Of a stretch of DNA of 54,262 nucleotides, positions 1,381 through 38,762 are shown one piece after another. Both the position numbers and the translations under genes were made by a program. The DNA is from an uncultured Bacilli bacterium (lineage in GTDB: Bacteria > Bacillota_I > Bacilli_A > RF39 > UBA660): NCBI GenBank assembly GCA_944371445.1, contig CALVXR010000094.1, forward strand, positions 1 to 54,262, given 5' to 3'. How positions within the stretch are numbered: position 1 is the first letter of the stretch; every line of letters begins with the position of its first letter. The notes under the pieces were generated by a model. It was not told the origin of the DNA. It saw only the letters and a program-made list of their open reading frames with translations, and ran no database searches.

Positions 1381-4029
1381 CTAACTTAATTTTTCATTTT
1401 TTCTCTTAATATATTTATAGAATTCCATTACAATTAAAACTATTATAGATATCATAAATAAATATAATAATTTATCAATAGAAACAGAATGAGTTTTTAA
1501 AAACACACTTAAAGTTTCAACTTCCATTACAATTACTTGTAATACTATAGCAGACACTATACTGAATATGATAAGTGGATTTTCAAATAAGTTAATTTTA
1601 AATATAGATTCTTTTTCACTCTTACAATTAAGTACATGCATATTTTGTATAAATACCATTAGAGCCATAATATATCCTCTAGCAATACTTTCATCTATAT
1701 GAAGTACATTTATACAAATATACCATACAAAGAATACAACTAATCCAATAGTAAGTCCCGCAACCATAACTTCAAGTAAAAGTTCTTTATTAAAGATTGA
1801 ATCTTTTACACTTCTAGGTTTTTCTTCCATAATATTTTTTTCTGCTTTTTCAAAAGATAAAGCAAAATCTTGAAGTCCGTCTGTTACTATATTAAGCCAC
1901 AATAACTGTATAGCAACAAGAGGCATAGGTAAATTAAATACTATTGATAACATAAAAAACAATACTTCAGCAAGACCACACGATAATAACATATAACTTA
2001 CTTTTCTTATATTACTATAAGCATTTCTACCTTCTTTAATGCCAGCTACTATAGATTTAAAATTATCATCCAAAATAATCATAGATGCAGTCTCTTTAGC
2101 TACATCAGTACCACTTCCCATAGCAACACCTATGTTAGCTGCTTTTAATGCTGGAGCATCATTTACTCCGTCACCTGTAACTGCTATAAATTCTCCTTGT
2201 CTTTTATAAGATTCAACTATTTCTAATTTTTGAAGTGGAGTCACTCTTGTAAATATTTTCTTTTCACTAACAAATTTATCAAATTGTTCTTTTCCTTTTT
2301 TCAAAAACAATTCTACTTCTTCACCAATAGTTACTTCTTCATAGTGAGTTGCTAAAGTAAGTTCTTTTGCTATTGCAAAAGCAGTAAGTGGATGATCTCC
2401 TGTAATCATTGACACTTTTATTCCAGCAGTTTGACATTCTTCTATTGCTTTTTTTACTTCTTTTCTAACTGGATCAATAAAAGCTACTAACCCTATAAAG
2501 GTTAAATCCTTTATATCACTCTCATTATAGTCATCTTTTTCCTCGATAACAGTATCTGCAAGTGCTATAACTCTATAACCTTCTTTAGCTAAACTTTCAT
2601 TTTGCATATTAATTTTCTCTATATCTAAATCTTCTATTTTATTTTTACTCTTCATCTTATTTGAATAAAATAAAATCTTTTCAAGAGATCCTTTTACAGT
2701 ACAGTGAACCTCATTATTTCTTCTATAAAAAGCAGCAGAATATTTATTTTCAGATTCATAAGGAATTAATTTTAAAACTTCAACATCTCTTTCATTTATA
2801 CCAGCTTTTAAACCTAAAATTTTAAATGCAATATCTATAGAATCCCCCATAGTTTCAATTTTTTCTTCTTTTTTTACTATACTTTCATTATTTACAAATC
2901 CTAATAGCGCTATTTCTTTTGCTTTTTCTATATCATTTCCTTTTATAGTTCCTTCTATATTATATCCAATACCATCTACAAGATAAGTTTCATCATCAGG
3001 TAGTACTATTTTTTTGGCTGTTTGTTCATTAACTGTAAGTGTTCCAGTTTTATCAGTAGCAATTACTGTACAGCTTCCTAAACTTTCAACTGAATTAAGT
3101 TTTTTTACAATAACATTCTTTTTAGCCATCTTATTAGATGCTATAGTAAGTGCCATAGTAAGAGCAAGTGGTAATCCTTCTGGCATTGCTGATACTGAAA
3201 GTGCTATTACTGATAAAAAGATTTCTTTTCCATCAACATTTTTAATAAATAGCAATATTGTTAAAATAATAGCAATTATTACAACTAATAAACTTATTTG
3301 TTTAGAAAATTTTTCCATTCTAATTGTAAGAGGAGACTTAGTTTCTTTTGTTTCATGTACCGAAGTTGCTATTTTACCAATTTCAGTATTAGAACCAATA
3401 TCAGTAACTACTGCAACTGCTCTTCCTCTTGTTATTGTAGTTCCAGCATAAATCATATTTGTTCTATCACCTAAAGGTGTATTTATATCTAAAACCTTAT
3501 TAGTTTTATTTTCTTGTATACTTTCTCCAGTAAGCACAGCTTCATCTATTTGAAGATTTTCACTTTCAATTATTCTATGGTCTGCACTTACCTTATCACC
3601 TGATTTTAAATATACAATATCACCTATAGTTATTTCATGTGAATCAAGTAAAACTTCTTTTCCATTTCTCTTTACTAGTACTTTTACTTCTACTAACTTA
3701 GATAAACTTTCAGCAGTTCTTTCAGCTTTAAATTCTTGTACAGTTCCCATTATTAAATCAACTACAATAATAAAGATGATTGCAATAGCATCTATTACTT
3801 CTCCAATAATAAACGAAAAAATAACAGTAATTATTAATAATATAACAATTGGATCAAATAATTGTTTTAATAATATCAAAAAGAAATTAGCTTTCTTTTT
3901 TTCTGGTAAAACATTTTTTCCGTATTTTTCTATTCTTTTTAACGCTTCTTCATTTGTAAGTCCATTTAAATTTGTATTTAATTTTTCTAATGTTTCTTCA
4001 GCTGTTTTATTATACCACATATTTAACAC
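1381..4029 (-). CDS. Cation-translocating P-type ATPase, P2A (Ca2+-pump-like)
   Basis: 882 aa. Contains TGES (LTGESIQ), phosphorylation motif DKTGTLT, hinge TGDGVNDAPALK, the M4 motif PEGLP and multiple TM segments. Confidence 0.93.
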   Translation of the reverse strand: MLNMWYNKTAEETLEKLNTNLNGLTNEEALKRIEKYGKNVLPEKKKANFFLILLKQLFDPIVILLIITVIFSFIIGEVIDAIAIIFIIVVDLIMGTVQEFKAERTAESLSKLVEVKVLVKRNGKEVLLDSHEITIGDIVYLKSGDKVSADHRIIESENLQIDEAVLTGESIQENKTNKVLDINTPLGDRTNMIYAGTTITRGRAVAVVTDIGSNTEIGKIATSVHETKETKSPLTIRMEKFSKQISLLVVIIAIILTILLFIKNVDGKEIFLSVIALSVSAMPEGLPLALTMALTIASNKMAKKNVIVKKLNSVESLGSCTVIATDKTGTLTVNEQTAKKIVLPDDETYLVDGIGYNIEGTIKGNDIEKAKEIALLGFVNNESIVKKEEKIETMGDSIDIAFKILGLKAGINERDVEVLKLIPYESENKYSAAFYRRNNEVHCTVKGSLEKILFYSNKMKSKNKIEDLDIEKINMQNESLAKEGYRVIALADTVIEEKDDYNESDIKDLTFIGLVAFIDPVRKEVKKAIEECQTAGIKVSMITGDHPLTAFAIAKELTLATHYEEVTIGEEVELFLKKGKEQFDKFVSEKKIFTRVTPLQKLEIVESYKRQGEFIAVTGDGVNDAPALKAANIGVAMGSGTDVAKETASMIILDDNFKSIVAGIKEGRNAYSNIRKVSYMLLSCGLAEVLFFMLSIVFNLPMPLVAIQLLWLNIVTDGLQDFALSFEKAEKNIMEEKPRSVKDSIFNKELLLEVMVAGLTIGLVVFFVWYICINVLHIDESIARGYIMALMVFIQNMHVLNCKSEKESIFKINLFENPLIIFSIVSAIVLQVIVMEVETLSVFLKTHSVSIDKLLYLFMISIIVLIVMEFYKYIKRKNEKLS

Positions 4030-4033
4030 CTCT

Positions 4034-4765
4034 TTATATTATTACTGCACCATCTACTGATAAAATAGCACCACTAATATAACTAGCCATATCAGATGCT
4101 AAAAACAGAAATGCATTTGCTACATCTTCTTTTGTTCCAATACGTTTAAGAGGAATATTATTTATAAGAGGTTCTATCATCTCTTTTGGAAGATTTTCTA
4201 CCATATCTGTTTTTATTATTCCAGGAGCTACTGCATTTACTCTTATATTATATTTTCCAAGTTCACGTGCTAATGACTTTGTAAGCCCATTTAAAGCTGA
4301 TTTACTTGCAGGATAAGCACATCCACTTGGCTGCCCATATAAACTTACTACTGAGCTAGTATTAAGAATTACGCCACCATTTTCTTTTAAGTAAGGTAAA
4401 ACTTCTTTAGAACAATTAAATACTGCATTTAAATTTATATCTATTACTTTTTTAAAATCATCATAAGTATATTCTTCTAATTTTTTTCTATCTGATACAC
4501 CAGCATTATTTACTAATATATCTATTTTTCCATATATTTCTTTTATTTTAGCAAAAGTTTCTTTTATTTCATTTGGATCATTTAAATTAGGATAAAATCC
4601 TATTACTTCTCCTTTTTCTTTTAAAGTGCCTAAAGCTTTATCCACACTTTCTTTTTTACTACCAAAAATAGCTATTTTAGCACTATTTTCTAAGTATTTT
4701 TCTGCAACCATATACCCAATACCTCTTGTAGCGCCAGTTATAATTGCAACTTTTCCTTCTAACAT
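4034..4765 (-). CDS. Short-chain dehydrogenase/reductase (FabG-like oxidoreductase)
   Basis: 243 aa. Contains TGATRGIG, NNAG and the catalytic Y-x3-K (YPASK). Confidence 0.88.
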   Translation of the reverse strand: MLEGKVAIITGATRGIGYMVAEKYLENSAKIAIFGSKKESVDKALGTLKEKGEVIGFYPNLNDPNEIKETFAKIKEIYGKIDILVNNAGVSDRKKLEEYTYDDFKKVIDINLNAVFNCSKEVLPYLKENGGVILNTSSVVSLYGQPSGCAYPASKSALNGLTKSLARELGKYNIRVNAVAPGIIKTDMVENLPKEMIEPLINNIPLKRIGTKEDVANAFLFLASDMASYISGAILSVDGAVII

Positions 4766-4774
4766 AAATCCCTC

Positions 4775-6046
4775 CTATTTTATTTTTCTTATAAAATCAT
4801 TCATTGTTGTTGTACTAACTATCGAATATCTTGGAATTAAATATGGATTACTTCCTACCACAGCACTTTGATTTTTCCCAATAAATGCTAATTTAAATCC
4901 TGCTTCTTTTAAATTTTCTATAGCATAATTATTATATTCATAAAATGGATAAGCAAATGCAATCACATCTCCACCTATAATTTCTTTAGACTTTTTTAAA
5001 TCTTCTTGTATTTTATCTTTTGATAAGCACTTTATTCCGCCACCTTGGCCACCAGAACAAACTCCCTGATTATGTAAATCATGACCATGTGACTGCACCT
5101 CTACATATGGTGAATTAAACTTTTCTCTCTCAAAGAAACTTGTTATTAAAAATAATGTTGCTCTTTTATTATATTTTTCCATTATTTCAGGTAAAATAGT
5201 ATCAGTTCCAAGTGCTCCATCATCTACTGTTATTAAAACACTTTTTTCTGGAAGTCTTATTTTTCCTGTTATAAATTTATAAAATTCATCTATTGTAACA
5301 GTATAATAATCATTATTTGATAAATATTCTATTTGTTTTTCAAAAGTACTCTTCTTTAAACATATTATTTCCTTACACCTATTATCGCCGTCTTCATAAA
5401 AGAAATGATAATTTAATACGGGCATAGATTTAGCATACACATCACTATTTACTTTTTCTGTTTTTTCTATATTTTCTTCTTTAGGGTAATATAATCCATT
5501 ATGGTATCTAATAAATTTCTTAGTACCATCTTTCATCAAAACATCACTTGTAATAGTACCTTCTATATCGAATACTAGTTTATCATTTTCATCATAAAGT
5601 TTTATTTTATTTAGAGTTATTTTTTCTCCAAAAGATATATATTTATCATAATTTACTTTCTTAAAACTTAAATTATCTATTTTTTCTGCACTATTATATT
5701 TTATATAATAAGGTATTTCTACAAGTTCATAATATGTAGAATCATCATATGGTTTCAATGTAAATTCTAAACTTTCACCTATTGTACCTATTTCTATATA
5801 TTCATTGTTTTCTTTTTTATATAAAGCCGTATTTTCTTTTGTTTTTATATAATTGTTATAATTTTCTTTAGCGTCTTTTTTTATTTCTTCTTCTATTTTT
5901 TCGATTTTATTATTTATATCTTCTTTATTTTTAATATATTTTTCATCGTTTTTTTTATTTATTAAAAATGTAAAAAGAAAAGTAAGTGATAAAACAACTA
6001 TAAAAAATATAATTATAATAAAAGCTATTTTAAACATTTTTTTCAT
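4775..6046 (-). CDS. Membrane-anchored polysaccharide deacetylase family protein
   Basis: 423 aa. It has an N-terminal TM helix and a Lys/Glu-rich linker. The C-terminal NodB-type domain has TVDDG and HGHDLH motifs. Confidence 0.8.
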   Translation of the reverse strand: MKKMFKIAFIIIIFFIVVLSLTFLFTFLINKKNDEKYIKNKEDINNKIEKIEEEIKKDAKENYNNYIKTKENTALYKKENNEYIEIGTIGESLEFTLKPYDDSTYYELVEIPYYIKYNSAEKIDNLSFKKVNYDKYISFGEKITLNKIKLYDENDKLVFDIEGTITSDVLMKDGTKKFIRYHNGLYYPKEENIEKTEKVNSDVYAKSMPVLNYHFFYEDGDNRCKEIICLKKSTFEKQIEYLSNNDYYTVTIDEFYKFITGKIRLPEKSVLITVDDGALGTDTILPEIMEKYNKRATLFLITSFFEREKFNSPYVEVQSHGHDLHNQGVCSGGQGGGIKCLSKDKIQEDLKKSKEIIGGDVIAFAYPFYEYNNYAIENLKEAGFKLAFIGKNQSAVVGSNPYLIPRYSIVSTTTMNDFIRKIK

Positions 6047-6092
6047 ATTACCACCTACTATTTATAGTATATCAAAATGGTATGAATAATGC

Positions 6093-6125
6093 AAAAAAAA
6101 AGACAATTTTTTTATTTTTGTCTTT
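6093..6125 (-). terminator. Rho-independent terminator after htrA
   Basis: AAAGACAA (6099-6106) / TTGTCTTT (6118-6125). The - strand stem is followed by T9. It abuts the stop at 6126. Confidence 0.65.
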
Positions 6126-7202
6126 TTATGCTTCTTTTGTTAAATGTATTGTAGTTTCTTTTAAGTCTTTTCCTCTAAAATATTTTACTTTTACTTTATC
6201 TCCAACTGAATATTGATATAGTGCATGCCTAAATGTTGCAAGAGATGTTACTTTTTCATCGCCAAATTCAACAATTACATCCCCACTTTCAAATCCTGCA
6301 TCTTTAGCTGGACTACCATCTTGTACTGTAACTACAACTACACCTTCTTCAATTGAATCATCTATCATAATACCACTTTTATAAAGTAAATATGTATTTT
6401 GTACATCTGTCATTTCTATACCGACAAGTGGTCTTTTAATAGCTTCTCCTTTTTCTAGCTTTTCAACTGTTGTCATTGCAAGTTCAATAGGTATTGCAAA
6501 TCCCATTCCCTCCACTTCATCTTTCACAAGTTTAACGGAATTAACACCTATTACTTCACCATTTATATTAACAAGTGGTCCACCACTATTTCCAGGATTT
6601 ATTGCGGCATCTATTTGAATTACTTCCATAAGTCCTGAATCTTCTACTTCTATAGTTCTATCTTTACCTGATATTATTCCTTTAGTAACTGTTCCCATAT
6701 ATTCTTCACCAAGTGGTGATCCTACTGTAAAAATAGTATCACCAATTTCGGAATCACTACTCTTTCCTATTGATGCTATACTCATTACAGCGTCTTTGTC
6801 TATCGATAATACAGCAATATCAGAGTATTCATCACTACCTAATAATTTAGCTGTAACTTCTGTTCCAGCGTTATTTTTTATTTTTACTTCGTCGGAATCT
6901 GCCACTACATGATGATTTGTTATTAAATATCCACTTGTATCATCTTTTTTATAAACAAATCCTGTACCAGTACTAATAAGCTGTCCTCTTTTATATGCTT
7001 TTACTAAAACAACAGCATCATAAACTTTATCAACTGCACTTTTAATTGTATTTTCTTCTTTTATTGTTATATTTTCTGCAGTACCATTTGTTTCTTCAGT
7101 TAGTGGAAAATAATGAAATACCATTACTGTTCCTGATATTCCTATAAAAAATGCTAAAATGATAAAAGTTACATATATTATTTTTTGTTTATTTTCTTTC
7201 AT
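6126..7202 (-). CDS. htrA: HtrA/DegP-family serine protease with PDZ domain
   Basis: 358 aa. N-terminal TM anchor, trypsin-like core (TNHHVV His, GNSGGPL Ser motif) and a C-terminal PDZ-like region. Confidence 0.9.
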   Translation of the reverse strand: MKENKQKIIYVTFIILAFFIGISGTVMVFHYFPLTEETNGTAENITIKEENTIKSAVDKVYDAVVLVKAYKRGQLISTGTGFVYKKDDTSGYLITNHHVVADSDEVKIKNNAGTEVTAKLLGSDEYSDIAVLSIDKDAVMSIASIGKSSDSEIGDTIFTVGSPLGEEYMGTVTKGIISGKDRTIEVEDSGLMEVIQIDAAINPGNSGGPLVNINGEVIGVNSVKLVKDEVEGMGFAIPIELAMTTVEKLEKGEAIKRPLVGIEMTDVQNTYLLYKSGIMIDDSIEEGVVVVTVQDGSPAKDAGFESGDVIVEFGDEKVTSLATFRHALYQYSVGDKVKVKYFRGKDLKETTIHLTKEA

Positions 7203-35303: not shown

Positions 35304-37415
35304 CTATTTATATAATGTAATTTTTATTTCATATCTATCATTTAAATCCATCTCATCAGAATCTAATCTATGTCCCATTCTCTCTAATCTATCAGTTATA
35401 TTTCTAATCATTTGTATTGCTTCTCTCATATTAAATGAAAGAGGCGCTGAAATGTTAATTTCTGGTTCTTTTTCTTTAGGAAGAGGTACTGTATTTATTG
35501 TTTCTAATACAGGTTCTTCTTTTGTATCAAAATTATTTTCTATTATATTAGAAACTGGTGGAATAGTAATACTTGGTGTTGATTCTACTATTGGTTCATT
35601 TATTGTTTCTGAATTTATATTTGATTCAATATCAGGTACCATATTTGTTTCTTCTTTTATACCAATATTATTTTCTTCAATAATTGGTGCTGATGGGATA
35701 GTACTTGGTATTGGTTCTGCTATTGGTTCGATTACTGATTCAGTATTTACTTTATTTGATTCAATATTAGGTATCATATTTGTTTCTTCACTTATACCAA
35801 AATTATTTTCTTCAACAATTGGTGCTGATGGGATAGTACTTGGTATTGGTTCTGCTATTGGTTCAATTACTGATTCAGTATTTACTTTATTTGATTCAAT
35901 ATTAGGTACCATATTTGTTTCTTCTTTTATACCAATATTATTTTCTTCAATAATTGGTGCTGATGGAATAATATTTGGTGTTGGTTCTGTTATTGGTTCA
36001 ATTACAGACCCTACACTTGTATCATTTTTAACATTACTATTATTATTTTCATTTATTCCAACATATTGATTTTCTTGTATATTACTTGTATTAGGTATAT
36101 TTTCAATATTTTGTGGATAAACATCTTTTACTTTAACTGGTTCAATAACAGGATTATTAAATACATTTGAACTAAAATCTACGTTATTTATAGATTCATT
36201 ATTAGCTTGTACATTATTTATAATAGGTGTTCCCAATATTTTAGAATCATCATTAAAAATAGATCCACCTATTATTCTTCCACCATTACTTTCAGATGCA
36301 TTATCATTTTCTTCCATTCTATTTTGCATACTAGGCATTACATCAAAAAATCTTCCTTTTGGCATCATATTATTAGAATTATTTTCTGATATATTTCCTG
36401 TACTTTGCATTAAATCTATATTATTTTTTTGATTATTAAAAGATATATCAGTAGCTTCTCTTTCAATTTTATCTATATCCATAAATCCTGGATTAATAAC
36501 ATTATTATGAGTAATATTTGTATTTGGTTCTATTACATTGTTTTCAAATTCTTTATTAGCTACTTTTTCATTTGAATTATTAAAAGAGCCAATACTTTCC
36601 ATATTATTATTTTGATTACTTACTGGACTTATATCATTAATGTTACTAGAACTATTTTCAATAGTTACACTAGGAATATTAAAACTATTCATTGGATCAT
36701 TTGGATTCATTGCATTTTCCTCCTTTTTATCTTCTATTTTAAAAGAATTAATTATATCTAATATTTCTACTTCTTCTGGAGTAGGTATAAAACTTTTAAC
36801 CTTTTCTTCATCATTATTTTCTAATATTTTTTTTATTTCTTCATCAGTTTTTCTTACTGTTAATCTTTCATTTATTATTCTGTGAAGCATTTCTTCTTGC
36901 TTTACTTTATTTTTTAATTTAAGTAAAGAACGTGCATGTCTTTCAGATATTTTATTTTCCATTAAAGCATCTTGAACTTTTTCTGATAATTGTAAAAGTC
37001 TTAATTTATTAGCAATAGCTGGCTGACTAATACCTAATTTATCAGCAAGTTTTTCTTGCGTAATAGTCCCCATATCTAATATTTTTTTGTATGAAATAGC
37101 TTCTTCTATTGCAGTTAAATCTTCTCTTTGAACATTTTCAATAAGAGCTACTTCAGAACTTATTTCATCAGAAAAATTTTGAACTATAGCTGGTATTGAA
37201 GAAAGTCCTGCAAGTTGTGATGCTTTATATCTTCTTTCACCTGCTATTATTTCATATTTATTTCCTACTTGTCTTACTGTTATAGGTTGTATTACTCCGT
37301 ATTTTTTTATAGACTCTGAAAGTTCATTTAATTTATCTTCATTAAATGCTATACGAGGTTGAAACCTATTAGGTAAAATATCATTAATATTTATTTGAAT
37401 TATTTTAGGCTCCAT
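35304..37415 (-). CDS. noc: Noc-like ParB-family protein with a ~450-aa low-complexity insertion
   Basis: 703 aa. The first ~200 aa contain ILPNRFQPR, IIAGERRYKA, LIENVQRE, IANKLRLLQL...ISERHARSLL and LTVRKTDEEIKKIL. The last ~40 aa read MREAIQMIRN...YEIKITLYK. Both ends align with my memory of B. subtilis Noc rather than Spo0J. Confidence 0.8.
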   Translation of the reverse strand: MEPKIIQININDILPNRFQPRIAFNEDKLNELSESIKKYGVIQPITVRQVGNKYEIIAGERRYKASQLAGLSSIPAIVQNFSDEISSEVALIENVQREDLTAIEEAISYKKILDMGTITQEKLADKLGISQPAIANKLRLLQLSEKVQDALMENKISERHARSLLKLKNKVKQEEMLHRIINERLTVRKTDEEIKKILENNDEEKVKSFIPTPEEVEILDIINSFKIEDKKEENAMNPNDPMNSFNIPSVTIENSSSNINDISPVSNQNNNMESIGSFNNSNEKVANKEFENNVIEPNTNITHNNVINPGFMDIDKIEREATDISFNNQKNNIDLMQSTGNISENNSNNMMPKGRFFDVMPSMQNRMEENDNASESNGGRIIGGSIFNDDSKILGTPIINNVQANNESINNVDFSSNVFNNPVIEPVKVKDVYPQNIENIPNTSNIQENQYVGINENNNSNVKNDTSVGSVIEPITEPTPNIIPSAPIIEENNIGIKEETNMVPNIESNKVNTESVIEPIAEPIPSTIPSAPIVEENNFGISEETNMIPNIESNKVNTESVIEPIAEPIPSTIPSAPIIEENNIGIKEETNMVPDIESNINSETINEPIVESTPSITIPPVSNIIENNFDTKEEPVLETINTVPLPKEKEPEINISAPLSFNMREAIQMIRNITDRLERMGHRLDSDEMDLNDRYEIKITLYK
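35576..36010. repeat. About 3.2 tandem copies of a 135-bp (45-aa) in-frame repeat inside the noc-like gene
   Basis: Unit starts at 35621, 35756 and 35891 (TTGATTCAATAT...). Copies differ at only a few positions. The encoded unit is SVIEPIAEPIPSTIPSAPI.EENN.GI.EETNM.PNIESNKVNTE. Confidence 0.9.
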
Positions 37416-37460
37416 ACACGTGCCTCCCTACTTTATTCTTTTATAAATACATAATACTAT

Positions 37461-37499
37461 ATTTTGGGAAATAATTCAATAAAATTTTGGGAAATAATT
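37461..37499. promoter_or_regulatory. Two perfect 16-bp direct repeats (ATTTTGGGAAATAATT) upstream of the noc-like gene
   Basis: Copies at 37461-37476 and 37484-37499 (23-bp period). Each contains GGGAAATA, the right half of the 16-bp Noc-binding-site palindrome TATTTCCCGGGAAATA. Confidence 0.4.
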
Positions 37500-37601
37500 T
37501 TAATAATTTATAATTTTTGATTTTATTTAATTTTTATTTGGTAATTTTTACCATTTGTTTTTTATTTATAATTAGTGTATGTTAAAAATGAGGTGGTAAA
37601 A

Positions 37602-38063
37602 ATGAATTATATTTTATATAACAAAAACAAATTAAATGATAAAATTGTGCAAGAAAAAATCCTATCTTTTTTTAATTTAAACTATAAATCATTTATATAT
37701 TTTTTAGATATTAAAAATGATACAATACATTACTTATTATTTGGTAAAAAAATAGAATTAATACAAATTATTTTTCAAAAAAAAGTATGGAATTATAAAA
37801 ATAATATTTCTATTTTAGAAGAAGCTTTAAATAGAAAAAAATATGTTAAAAATTATATTTCTTATATAGATAAAATAACTCAGTATAACCTATTATTATT
37901 TGATAATAATTATAATTATGAAGTCAAAGATTGGTATTTTAAAGATAGCAATAATTATTTTACTAGTGATATATATTCTATTCTTTTATATAATTTATAT
38001 TTTATAGAAAAAAAAGAAAATTTTAAATATAAAGAACTTTCTAATTTTATATATAATTTATAA
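37602..38063 (+). CDS. Hypothetical Asn/Tyr/Lys-rich protein (the only + strand ORF left of oriC)
   Basis: ATG at 37602 lies 6 nt after GAGGTGG. The longest ORF starts with GTG at 37575. No family recognised. Its 3' end overlaps the rsmG 3' end by 6 nt. Confidence 0.4.
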   Translation: MNYILYNKNKLNDKIVQEKILSFFNLNYKSFIYFLDIKNDTIHYLLFGKKIELIQIIFQKKVWNYKNNISILEEALNRKKYVKNYISYIDKITQYNLLLFDNNYNYEVKDWYFKDSNNYFTSDIYSILLYNLYFIEKKENFKYKELSNFIYNL

Positions 38064-38762
38064 TGGTTTTTTCTTAATATCACTATATTTTCTAGGATAT
38101 TTTTTATCTGTTTCTTTTAATTTTTTAAAAACTGGTATTGTTCTTTCACTATTTTCTATAGGAAGATAAAATCTATTTATTTTTTCTAGTTTAATATTTA
38201 ATATTTTTTCTTCTTTATCTATATTTATAAGTTCACTATCTATGCTTGCTTTTAATGGAGCAAATACACCACCTACTTTTACAAGTGGAATAGAATATTC
38301 AAGTAAGATAGGAAGACGTGCTACTGCTCTACATGTTACTAAATCAAACTTTTCTCTTACTTTTTTAGCATATTCTTCTGCCCTTTCATTATATACTTCT
38401 ATATTTTTTAATTCTAATTCTTTTATAACTTCTTTTAAGAAAATTATTCTTTTGTTAAGTGAATCTACTAGAGTTATATGAATATTTGGAAAAACTATTT
38501 TAAGAACTATTCCAGGAAATCCAGCACCAGTTCCTATGTCACATAATGAATTTATCTCTTTTAAATTTATATATTTATTTAAAGTTAAACTATCATAAAA
38601 GTGTTTTAAATAAACATCTTTTTTTTCTGTTATACCTGTTAAATTTATTTTTTCATTCCATTCTATTAATAATTTATAGTAATTTTCTAGTTTTTTTAAT
38701 TTTTCTTCATCTATGTCTATATTAAGTTCTTTTAAAGCATCTATAAATTCATTAGTTTGCAT
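38058..38762 (-). CDS. rsmG: 16S rRNA (guanine527-N7)-methyltransferase RsmG (GidB)
   Basis: 234 aa. Contains DIGTGAGFPG and CRAVA, and lies downstream of mnmG. Confidence 0.93.
   Translation of the reverse strand: MQTNEFIDALKELNIDIDEEKLKKLENYYKLLIEWNEKINLTGITEKKDVYLKHFYDSLTLNKYINLKEINSLCDIGTGAGFPGIVLKIVFPNIHITLVDSLNKRIIFLKEVIKELELKNIEVYNERAEEYAKKVREKFDLVTCRAVARLPILLEYSIPLVKVGGVFAPLKASIDSELINIDKEEKILNIKLEKINRFYLPIENSERTIPVFKKLKETDKKYPRKYSDIKKKPL

Follow-up and report, generated by a model that had tools for sequence, protein, structure and literature searches.

What can a clamp of the nucleoid occlusion protein (Noc) lineage do without membrane binding? The question is raised by a noc-like gene at 35304..37415 on the reverse strand of the window, that is, the whole 54,262-nucleotide (nt) contig CALVXR010000094.1 of an uncultured Bacilli bacterium (GenBank assembly GCA_944371445.1; GTDB family UBA660). 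Models of Noc rest on an N-terminal membrane helix gated by cytidine triphosphate (CTP) and on chromosome-wide binding sites, and both are missing here. Even so, at least 77 of the 79 family genomes sampled have kept the protein together with its DNA specificity and sites, a natural experiment bearing on that question. Our data pointed, with a probability of roughly 0.55, to an origin-localized CTP clamp whose linker motifs dock a partner protein. Such an anchor-less Noc probably links chromosome and division in a manner different from that of the textbook protein.

The gene starts with an ATG codon 7 nt downstream of a GGGAGG ribosome-binding site and encodes 703 residues (the coordinates include the stop codon). 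Its open frame comprises 707 residues, and an in-frame stop codon lies four codons upstream of the ATG, so that no N-terminal extension of the protein is possible. Three parts were distinguished: a ParB N-terminal domain with a helix-turn-helix (HTH) domain (residues 1-204), an acidic, Asn-rich, disordered linker of 451 residues, and a folded C-terminal domain of 48 residues that is kept in all relatives. The coordinates of these and the further parts of the gene refer to the reverse strand. The CTP-binding ParB_N domain (residues 5-96; 37128..37403; Pfam PF02195, 115.5 bits, 1.2e-33; predicted local distance difference test score (pLDDT), 81-94) carries the motifs PNRFQPR (15-21), GERRYK (59-64), and ENVQRE (93-98), and is followed by the HTH_ParB DNA-binding domain (residues 98-198; 36822..37124; Pfam PF17762, 110.8 bits, 4.1e-32). 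The C-terminal domain (residues 656-703; 35307..35450; pLDDT, 92-96), with a helix at 661-679 and two strands, is collinear with the Noc C-terminal dimerization domain. In an AlphaFold2 model built from an 80-sequence family alignment, the pLDDT was 81-96 for residues 1-204 and 92-96 for residues 656-703, and fell below 50 throughout the linker except for a short helix (314-320). ParB_N, HTH_ParB, and the C-terminal dimerization domain, together with fold matches to ParB and Noc structures, assign the protein to the ParB/Srx-fold CTPase clamp superfamily.

To which side of that superfamily it belongs was resolved by a maximum-likelihood tree (IQ-TREE; 54 proteins, 255 columns) of the long and the ~295-residue proteins of relatives, Noc/ParB-like genes from other families of the class, and, as references, Protein Data Bank (PDB) sequences of Bacillus subtilis and Geobacillus thermoleovorans Noc and of B. 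subtilis Spo0J. Two clades, Spo0J and Noc, were separated in this tree with support of 100/100. The former took in B. subtilis Spo0J and the 296-residue ParB of the same genome; the latter took in B. subtilis and Geobacillus Noc, our protein, and all long relatives, with our protein and the long relatives forming a clade supported at 99/96. The top NCBIfam match was nucleoid_noc (TIGR04285; residues 4-207 on model positions 1-205 of 255; 283.9 bits). When the linker was removed in silico, the protein aligned with the model from end to end (1-255 of 255; 287.9 bits), its last ~50 residues falling on positions 206-255, and these residues therefore correspond to the Noc C-terminal domain. The sequence-only reading had held both protein ends to be collinear with Noc and had named phylogeny as the arbiter between Noc and Spo0J/ParB; both analyses came out on the Noc side. 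A search of PDB sequences likewise ranked Noc first (7NG0, 204.8 bits; 7OL9, 187.6 bits; Spo0J 6SDK, 171.6 bits), and the best fold match was Noc 7NFU (TM-score, 0.75; root mean square deviation, 2.9 Å; 197 columns).

Four positions set the preference for the Noc-binding site (NBS) or for parS, and a single lysine at position 179 or 184 suffices (Jalal et al. 2020; PMC7383237). At positions 173, 179, 184, and 201 (Caulobacter ParB numbering), canonical Noc has Q, K, K, and R, and our protein has Q131, K137, Q142, and R159, that is, the residues of NBS specificity (Q173, R201, and a lysine at 179 and/or 184) and not the parS-type pair R173 and G201. The ParA-interacting peptide LG[RK]GL was not found in the protein, which has no N-terminal extension. 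In the CTP-binding domain, the positions of Noc R89 (GERR) and N121 (ENxQR) are conserved as R62 and N94. The GERRYKA segment at 37224-37241 (residues 59-64) shows a clade-specific Arg-to-Lys change in the CTP-binding arginine patch. Judged from these alignments, the gene is a Noc-lineage ParB paralogue with an intact Noc-type CTP-binding domain and HTH, and its remodeled form is common to an entire family of uncultured gut Bacilli with small, low-GC genomes.

The part that Noc uses to reach the membrane is lacking. Membrane binding by canonical Noc needs the first 10 residues, which are released from caging by a second N-terminal helix only upon CTP binding (PMC8429893). The N-terminus of our protein (MEPKIIQININDILPNRFQPR) starts four residues before the first β-strand, and the first ~26 residues of canonical Noc, comprising the amphipathic membrane-targeting helix (~10 residues) and the caging helix α2, are missing. 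The sequence-only reading had already found no evident membrane-targeting peptide, in agreement with an ATG close to the first strand and a stop codon just upstream. All 24 aligned family proteins start ≤17 residues from the first β-strand, most of them ≤5 residues. Among the six aligned outgroup Nocs, which come from other Bacilli families, three are extended at the N-terminus by a hydrophobic stretch of ~20-40 residues (e.g., MASLFNILS, GLFDFLG); in a fourth, the extension is short (MNIFSG).

The DNA sites point to the origin region. This genome (1.19 Mb in 100 contigs, 91% complete, 24.6% GC) contains one perfect copy of the canonical 16-bp NBS TATTTCCCGGGAAATA against 0.0002 expected under an order-2 Markov model, and the NBS was its second most surprising 16-bp palindrome after parS. 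The copy (C83:3976-3991) is inside the coding sequence of mfd (3037-6312). The 3′ end of the window abuts contig C55, with GyrA continuing from residue 606 to 607 across the junction, and C55 abuts C83 by synteny with a congener; with the contigs joined in that order, the NBS lies ~17.6 kb to the right of dnaA. Many sites scattered over the chromosome, as Noc would have them, were not found in this genome, which holds this single origin-proximal copy. Across the family, an NBS with at most one mismatch was present in 56 of 61 genomes, compared with 5 of 61 for a reversed control pattern, and relatives usually have one to seven copies (23 in one genome). In all six sister genera inspected, the NBS is placed in the spacer between gyrA and tadA/dnaX, interleaved with parS in tandem units within ~1 kb, and an NBS ≤63 nt from a parS site was seen in 40 of 100 genera and in none for the control. 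The genus to which our genome belongs has a parS-only array, yet each of its six genomes keeps at least one perfect NBS, and the four that were placed are all origin-proximal at different spots (mfd, an rsmI-like gene, and an intergenic spacer). Outgroup Bacilli with a short Noc showed only a few imperfect, scattered NBS matches.

The position of the NBS shifts among genomes and stays near the origin: in congeners it falls in the neighboring rsmI-like gene or else in a spacer close to mnmE/mnmG, G019 (another genus) has one elsewhere in mfd, and G016 has one inside dnaX. The parS array of our genome (C55:662-899, in the gyrA-tadA spacer ~9 kb to the right of dnaA) consists of seven tandem sites with a 37-bp period, two of them perfect (TGTTTCACGTGAAACA), four with one mismatch, and one with two; in a congener, the array comprises ten sites at a period of 63 bp.

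Protein and site also vary together. No NBS was found in genomes without the gene (G117 and G135 of genus g104, plus the incomplete G070), nor in those whose protein reads SEGHAK for SERHAR, an R201-to-G change (G008, G124, and G025 from a sister family). The NBS was thus present in 0 of 6 gene-less or R201-to-G genomes against 24 of 27 genomes with a checked ERHAR protein (Fisher p = 7.6e-5, a value that is overstated given that relatives are not independent and that roughly three independent events are involved). It is rare for in silico covariation of this type to connect a DNA-binding protein with the site it recognizes. The divergent copies in G008, G124, and G025 read GGRRYEA or SEGHAK, with PNRFQPR degraded in G025, and genus g104 has lost the noc-like gene altogether.

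The linker (residues 205-655; 35451..36803) is disordered, acidic, and rich in Asn and Pro, as judged from its composition and pLDDT (N 18%, I 15%, E 12%, S 9.5%, P 9%; net charge, -48; pI 4.1). It replaces a hinge of ~10 residues between the DNA-binding and C-terminal domains of canonical Noc and ranges from 81 to 451 residues among family members, with ours the longest among the relatives and homologues compared. The sequence-only reading had described a low-complexity insertion of ~450 residues. The extra segment and its low complexity stood up to analysis (N 18%, pLDDT below 50), and the insertion proved to be a lineage-wide expanded linker with conserved motifs. In a first sample, all 24 same-family genomes had an open frame of 340-655 residues, compared with 707 in ours; in a second, a long frame of 323-689 residues was intact in 77 of 79 family genomes.

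The family linkers could not be aligned except for three islands in fixed order, for which 120 homologue linkers were compared with shuffled linkers. Motif C (NPNDPMNSFNIPSVTIEN; residues 237-254; 36654..36707; consensus N-D-P-M-N-x-F-N-I-P-x-x-P-I-I) has a core, F[NDTE][IL]P, that occurs in 55 of the 120 homologue linkers against 6.3 in shuffles. Its resemblance to the Hda-type β-clamp-binding motif (Q-hydrophobic-x-L/I-P) was considered and is unsupported, since the Gln position is 27% conserved and is Ser in our protein. Motif A (NPGFMDIDKIEREATDI; residues 308-324; 36444..36494; consensus N-P-G-F-M-D-[IV]-[DN]-K-I-E-x-x-A-x-D-I) was found in 80 of the 120 and never in shuffles, and its D, I, A, D, and I columns are 97-100% conserved. 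It is also the sole helix that AlphaFold2 predicts in the linker (helix 314-320, block pLDDT 73), with a 3-4-3 hydrophobic stripe (I314, I317, A321, and I324) on an acidic background, and we infer from the model that it may be a protein-docking helix. Motif B, or KFF (PKGRFFDVMPSM; residues 352-363; 36327..36362; consensus (P)-G-[KR]-F-F-[ND]-[MIL]-[FL] followed by an acidic run), follows motif A at a median distance of 53 residues and is the commonest of the linker motifs, with [KR]FF in 107 of the 120 homologues against 2.7 in shuffles. In an orthologue of 77% overall identity, whose folded domains are 98-100% identical to ours, motif A is unchanged, and in one of 64% identity it differs at three positions. 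The core of motif B shows at most an R-to-K change across both orthologues, while the sequences flanking the motifs have diverged or been deleted. On such comparisons, the proximal half of the linker carries three conserved short linear motifs, and the distal, Pro/Glu-rich half is best described as a length-variable spacer.

Taken together, an origin-localized clamp that docks a partner would operate as follows. Dimers would load at origin-proximal NBS, perhaps also at half-sites in their own promoter, and would then take up CTP, form a closed clamp, and spread over nearby DNA. Through motifs A, B, and C on the tether, this complex at the origin region would next be docked onto a partner protein from the machinery of division or segregation. 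The outcome would be a device for occlusion or positioning at the origin rather than over the whole chromosome, working beside, but separately from, Soj-Spo0J-parS. A protein partner is favored over lipid because the linker has a net charge of -48 and motif A is an acidic helix with a hydrophobic stripe.

Several observations weigh against this view. The protein scores below the curated TIGR04285 cut-off of 315 bits both in its native form (283.9) and without the linker (287.9), whereas an outgroup Noc (L030) clears it with 354.4 bits; the score of the linker-removed construct also rules out the insertion alone as the cause of the sub-threshold result. The third Arg of GERRxRA is Lys (K64, GERRYKA) in the whole long-linker family. 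Three relatives with a normal-looking protein lack an NBS in their draft assemblies, and with one full NBS in the genus and none in its parS array, the amount of loaded protein may be small. Motifs A, B, and C were found in no other protein of this genome, which gives no pointer to a partner, and a search with the A-B module (residues 300-370) in a collection of 5.8 billion sequences, within the limits of the search tool, returned only the same ParB family. The sequence KFFN[MIL][FL] of motif B is similar to the core of hydrophobic residues in the membrane helices of canonical Noc (RFFGL/LFNIL); the B. subtilis Noc N-terminus presumably contains an RFFGLG-type core. Finally, CTP binding, clamping, NBS binding, and the partner are, for every family member, properties that would follow from sequence.

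The resemblance of motif B to membrane helices leads to the main rival, an internal membrane-targeting peptide. Motif B would then be a relocated or reinvented membrane-targeting sequence that pulls origin-proximal DNA to the membrane on a long leash. The wide distribution of the motif (107/120) and the likeness of its core to hydrophobic peptides at the N-termini of outgroup Nocs (MASLFNILS, GLFDFLG, MNIFSG) speak for this reading, and anchoring of the origin to the membrane by an amphipathic-helix DNA-binding protein has a reported precedent in Staphylococcus aureus RicO (bioRxiv 10.64898/2026.03.06.710092). However, the motif is very short, is not predicted to be helical by AlphaFold2 (pLDDT ~47-50), and precedes an acidic run within a linker charged at -48, which would be unfavorable on anionic bacterial membranes. 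The canonical Noc helix is, moreover, caged by the CTP-binding domain (PMC8429893), a form of regulation out of reach for an internal motif 150 residues away. We therefore consider a retained membrane tether unlikely, although it is the alternative that survives best.

Quite improbable is nucleoid occlusion of the classical, chromosome-wide kind known from B. subtilis, with the long linker no more than a tolerated spacer. It would fit the position of the protein in the Noc clade and its Noc-type specificity residues, as well as the division apparatus of the organism. Genes for FtsZ, for five transpeptidases of the penicillin-binding-protein type, and for two DivIVA-like proteins are present, and no MinD was found at the family threshold in the 91%-complete assembly; the organism therefore has a wall and divides with FtsZ, apparently without Min, and a safeguard for the division site would be useful. 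The sites fit poorly, since the 1.19 Mb contain a single full NBS, which is close to the origin, and those of relatives are clustered within ~1 kb by parS, whereas the B. subtilis sites are scattered around the chromosome (PMC8429893). In addition, the membrane helix indispensable in B. subtilis is missing, and the conserved linker motifs speak against a passive spacer.

The promoter region raises another alternative, namely a transcriptional regulator or silencer of the KorB type acting on its own promoter and on genes around the loading sites. Upstream of the gene, a promoter-like element (TTGAAT-17-TATTAT; 37451..37499; sequence and promoter scan) is accompanied by two direct repeats that each contain the NBS half-site TATTTCCC, the first inside the promoter spacer and the second just upstream of the -35 element, and the gene may be autoregulated through them. 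The same design is kept in five related genomes (G001, G002, G006, G007, and G011), and a full NBS lies ≤~300 bp upstream of noc in three other genera. A ParB-type clamp, KorB, is reported to silence promoters (PMC11790492). Nevertheless, half-sites are not known to load Noc, the NBS of relatives are mostly in a non-coding array with parS rather than in promoters, and the full NBS of the genus falls in coding sequence, mfd or the rsmI-like gene. Autoregulation also leaves a motif-bearing tether of ~450 residues unexplained, and we regard a mainly regulatory role as very unlikely.

Most improbable of all, and largely refuted by conservation, is a decaying or neutral gene with AT-biased low-complexity junk and replication-slippage repeats: a 24.6% GC genome, an Asn/Ile-rich linker of variable length (81 to 451 residues), unrelated internal repeats in 25 of 120 homologues, and the loss of the gene in one genus would be expected of it, but the frame is intact in 77 of 79 family genomes, the folded domains are 98-100% identical at 77% overall identity, key motif columns are 97-100% conserved, and the NBS is maintained despite strong AT pressure.

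Returning to the origin-localized clamp with docking motifs, a fuller and more speculative scenario can be sketched, which we put forward only tentatively. Across this large, uncultured lineage, Noc may have given up tethering DNA to the membrane all over the chromosome and become a clamp at the origin that loads beside ParB on a shared or neighboring centromere, with three short docking motifs on a long acidic leash recruiting a division or segregation protein. This would provide a Min-independent placement of the origin, or of the division site with reference to the origin, and the length of the leash would be tuned by repeat expansion.

Compared with known systems, the protein shares with Noc of B. 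subtilis, G. thermoleovorans, and S. aureus (TIGR04285; 7OL9, 7NFU, 7NG0, and 6Y93) its clade, ~50% identity over the CTP-binding and DNA-binding domains with the same Q, K, and R residues, the same 16-bp NBS in the genome, a gene position after rsmG, and a collinear C-terminal domain. It differs from them in lacking the α1 membrane helix and α2, in a hinge expanded from ~10 to 451 residues with motifs, in GERRYKA instead of GERRxRA, in NBS that are few and origin-proximal instead of scattered, and in a score below the family threshold. The ParB/CTPase fold and the origin-near loading sites, which in sister genera share an array with parS, are reminiscent of Firmicutes Spo0J/ParB-parS. Unlike Spo0J/ParB, however, our protein has other recognition residues and another DNA site, no ParA-stimulating peptide, and no adjacent ParA, and the genome has a separate canonical Soj-Spo0J pair with its own parS array.

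With S. aureus RicO, there is a functional analogy only: RicO is reported to combine sequence-specific DNA binding, origin-proximal sites, and a distal short tether motif, but it is tethered by an amphipathic helix at its C-terminus for which membrane binding has been demonstrated, whereas the motifs here are internal and acidic. KorB of plasmid RK2 is similar in its ParB-type clamp, its output through a recruited protein, and a flexible linker before a small C-terminal dimerization domain. In contrast to our protein, KorB is encoded on a plasmid, recognizes OB sites, and has KorA and IncC as partners, and its linker is tens of residues long, not hundreds.

A literature search found no description of a Noc with a long linker and no anchor, nor of arrays that mix parS with NBS. 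The family bears on how short linear motifs within a disordered linker could give a ParB paralogue a new output, and its three peptide motifs and one DNA site are reagents for a partner search. The additions made by the present locus are modest: the longest linker compared, a strain-variable 45-residue repeat, the covariation test, and a genus that has purged the NBS from its parS array yet keeps one perfect site.

The repeat just mentioned occupies residues ~465-634 in the distal, Pro/Glu/Ile/Asn-rich part of the linker, C-terminal to motif B. Tandem Repeats Finder reported a 135-bp (45-residue) unit in 3.3 copies at 35570..36005 (90% matches, no indels), close to the ~3.2 near-identical copies counted in the sequence-only reading, and a second repeat search gave three full copies at 35618-36022 (100/95/87%) and a degenerate fourth (~75%). 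At the protein level, the unit reads PIAEPIPSTIPSAPI(I/V)EENN(I/F)GI(K/S)EETNM(V/I)PNIESNKVNTESVIE. A 99%-identical protein of 658 residues from another assembly has exactly one 45-residue unit fewer, and a 77%-identical protein has its own diverged version of the repeat; both fit the recent expansion that the sequence-only reading had suggested, the former meeting its call for a comparison of copy numbers across strains. These copy numbers are as assembled, and short-read collapse or expansion is possible in both assemblies. Since 25 of the 120 homologues carry unrelated internal repeats (periods of 10-149 residues), tandem duplication is the usual route by which the spacer changes length.

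The conserved upstream neighbor of the noc-like gene is rsmG (38058..38762, reverse strand; Pfam GidB, 179.4 bits), and the order mnmG-rsmG-noc is kept in nearly all relatives. The other neighbors are a small head-on open reading frame (ORF), an HD-domain gene, and uvrB. The head-on ORF (37575-38063, forward strand), between rsmG and the noc-like gene, encodes 162 residues without a Pfam match, and homologues with 35-45% identity occupy the same slot in four congeners only. It was ruled out as the partner of the motifs, being genus-specific and unable to explain motifs found throughout the family.

No soj-spo0J pair adjoins the noc-like gene, as the sequence-only reading had remarked, and no ParA gene was found in its neighborhood in the window. 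The whole-genome search for parA and parB that it had suggested located the pair elsewhere, on contig C33. The genome has exactly two ParB_N genes, and the second, encoding the 296-residue ParB, comes directly after a 273-residue ParA/Soj gene, downstream of rplM-rpsI. This Spo0J has the ParA-stimulating N-terminal peptide KKRALGRGLEQLF (LGRGLEQLF) and the parS-type recognition residues R and G (SRSH...SMGHAR). As it has the LGRGL peptide and adjoins Soj, the partition function is presumably kept by Spo0J. The operon (C33:21075-22767, reverse strand) comes right after rplM-rpsI, with a gene for an MscS-like channel behind it; it has been relocated in this genome, and in several other genera of the family soj-spo0J still adjoins noc.

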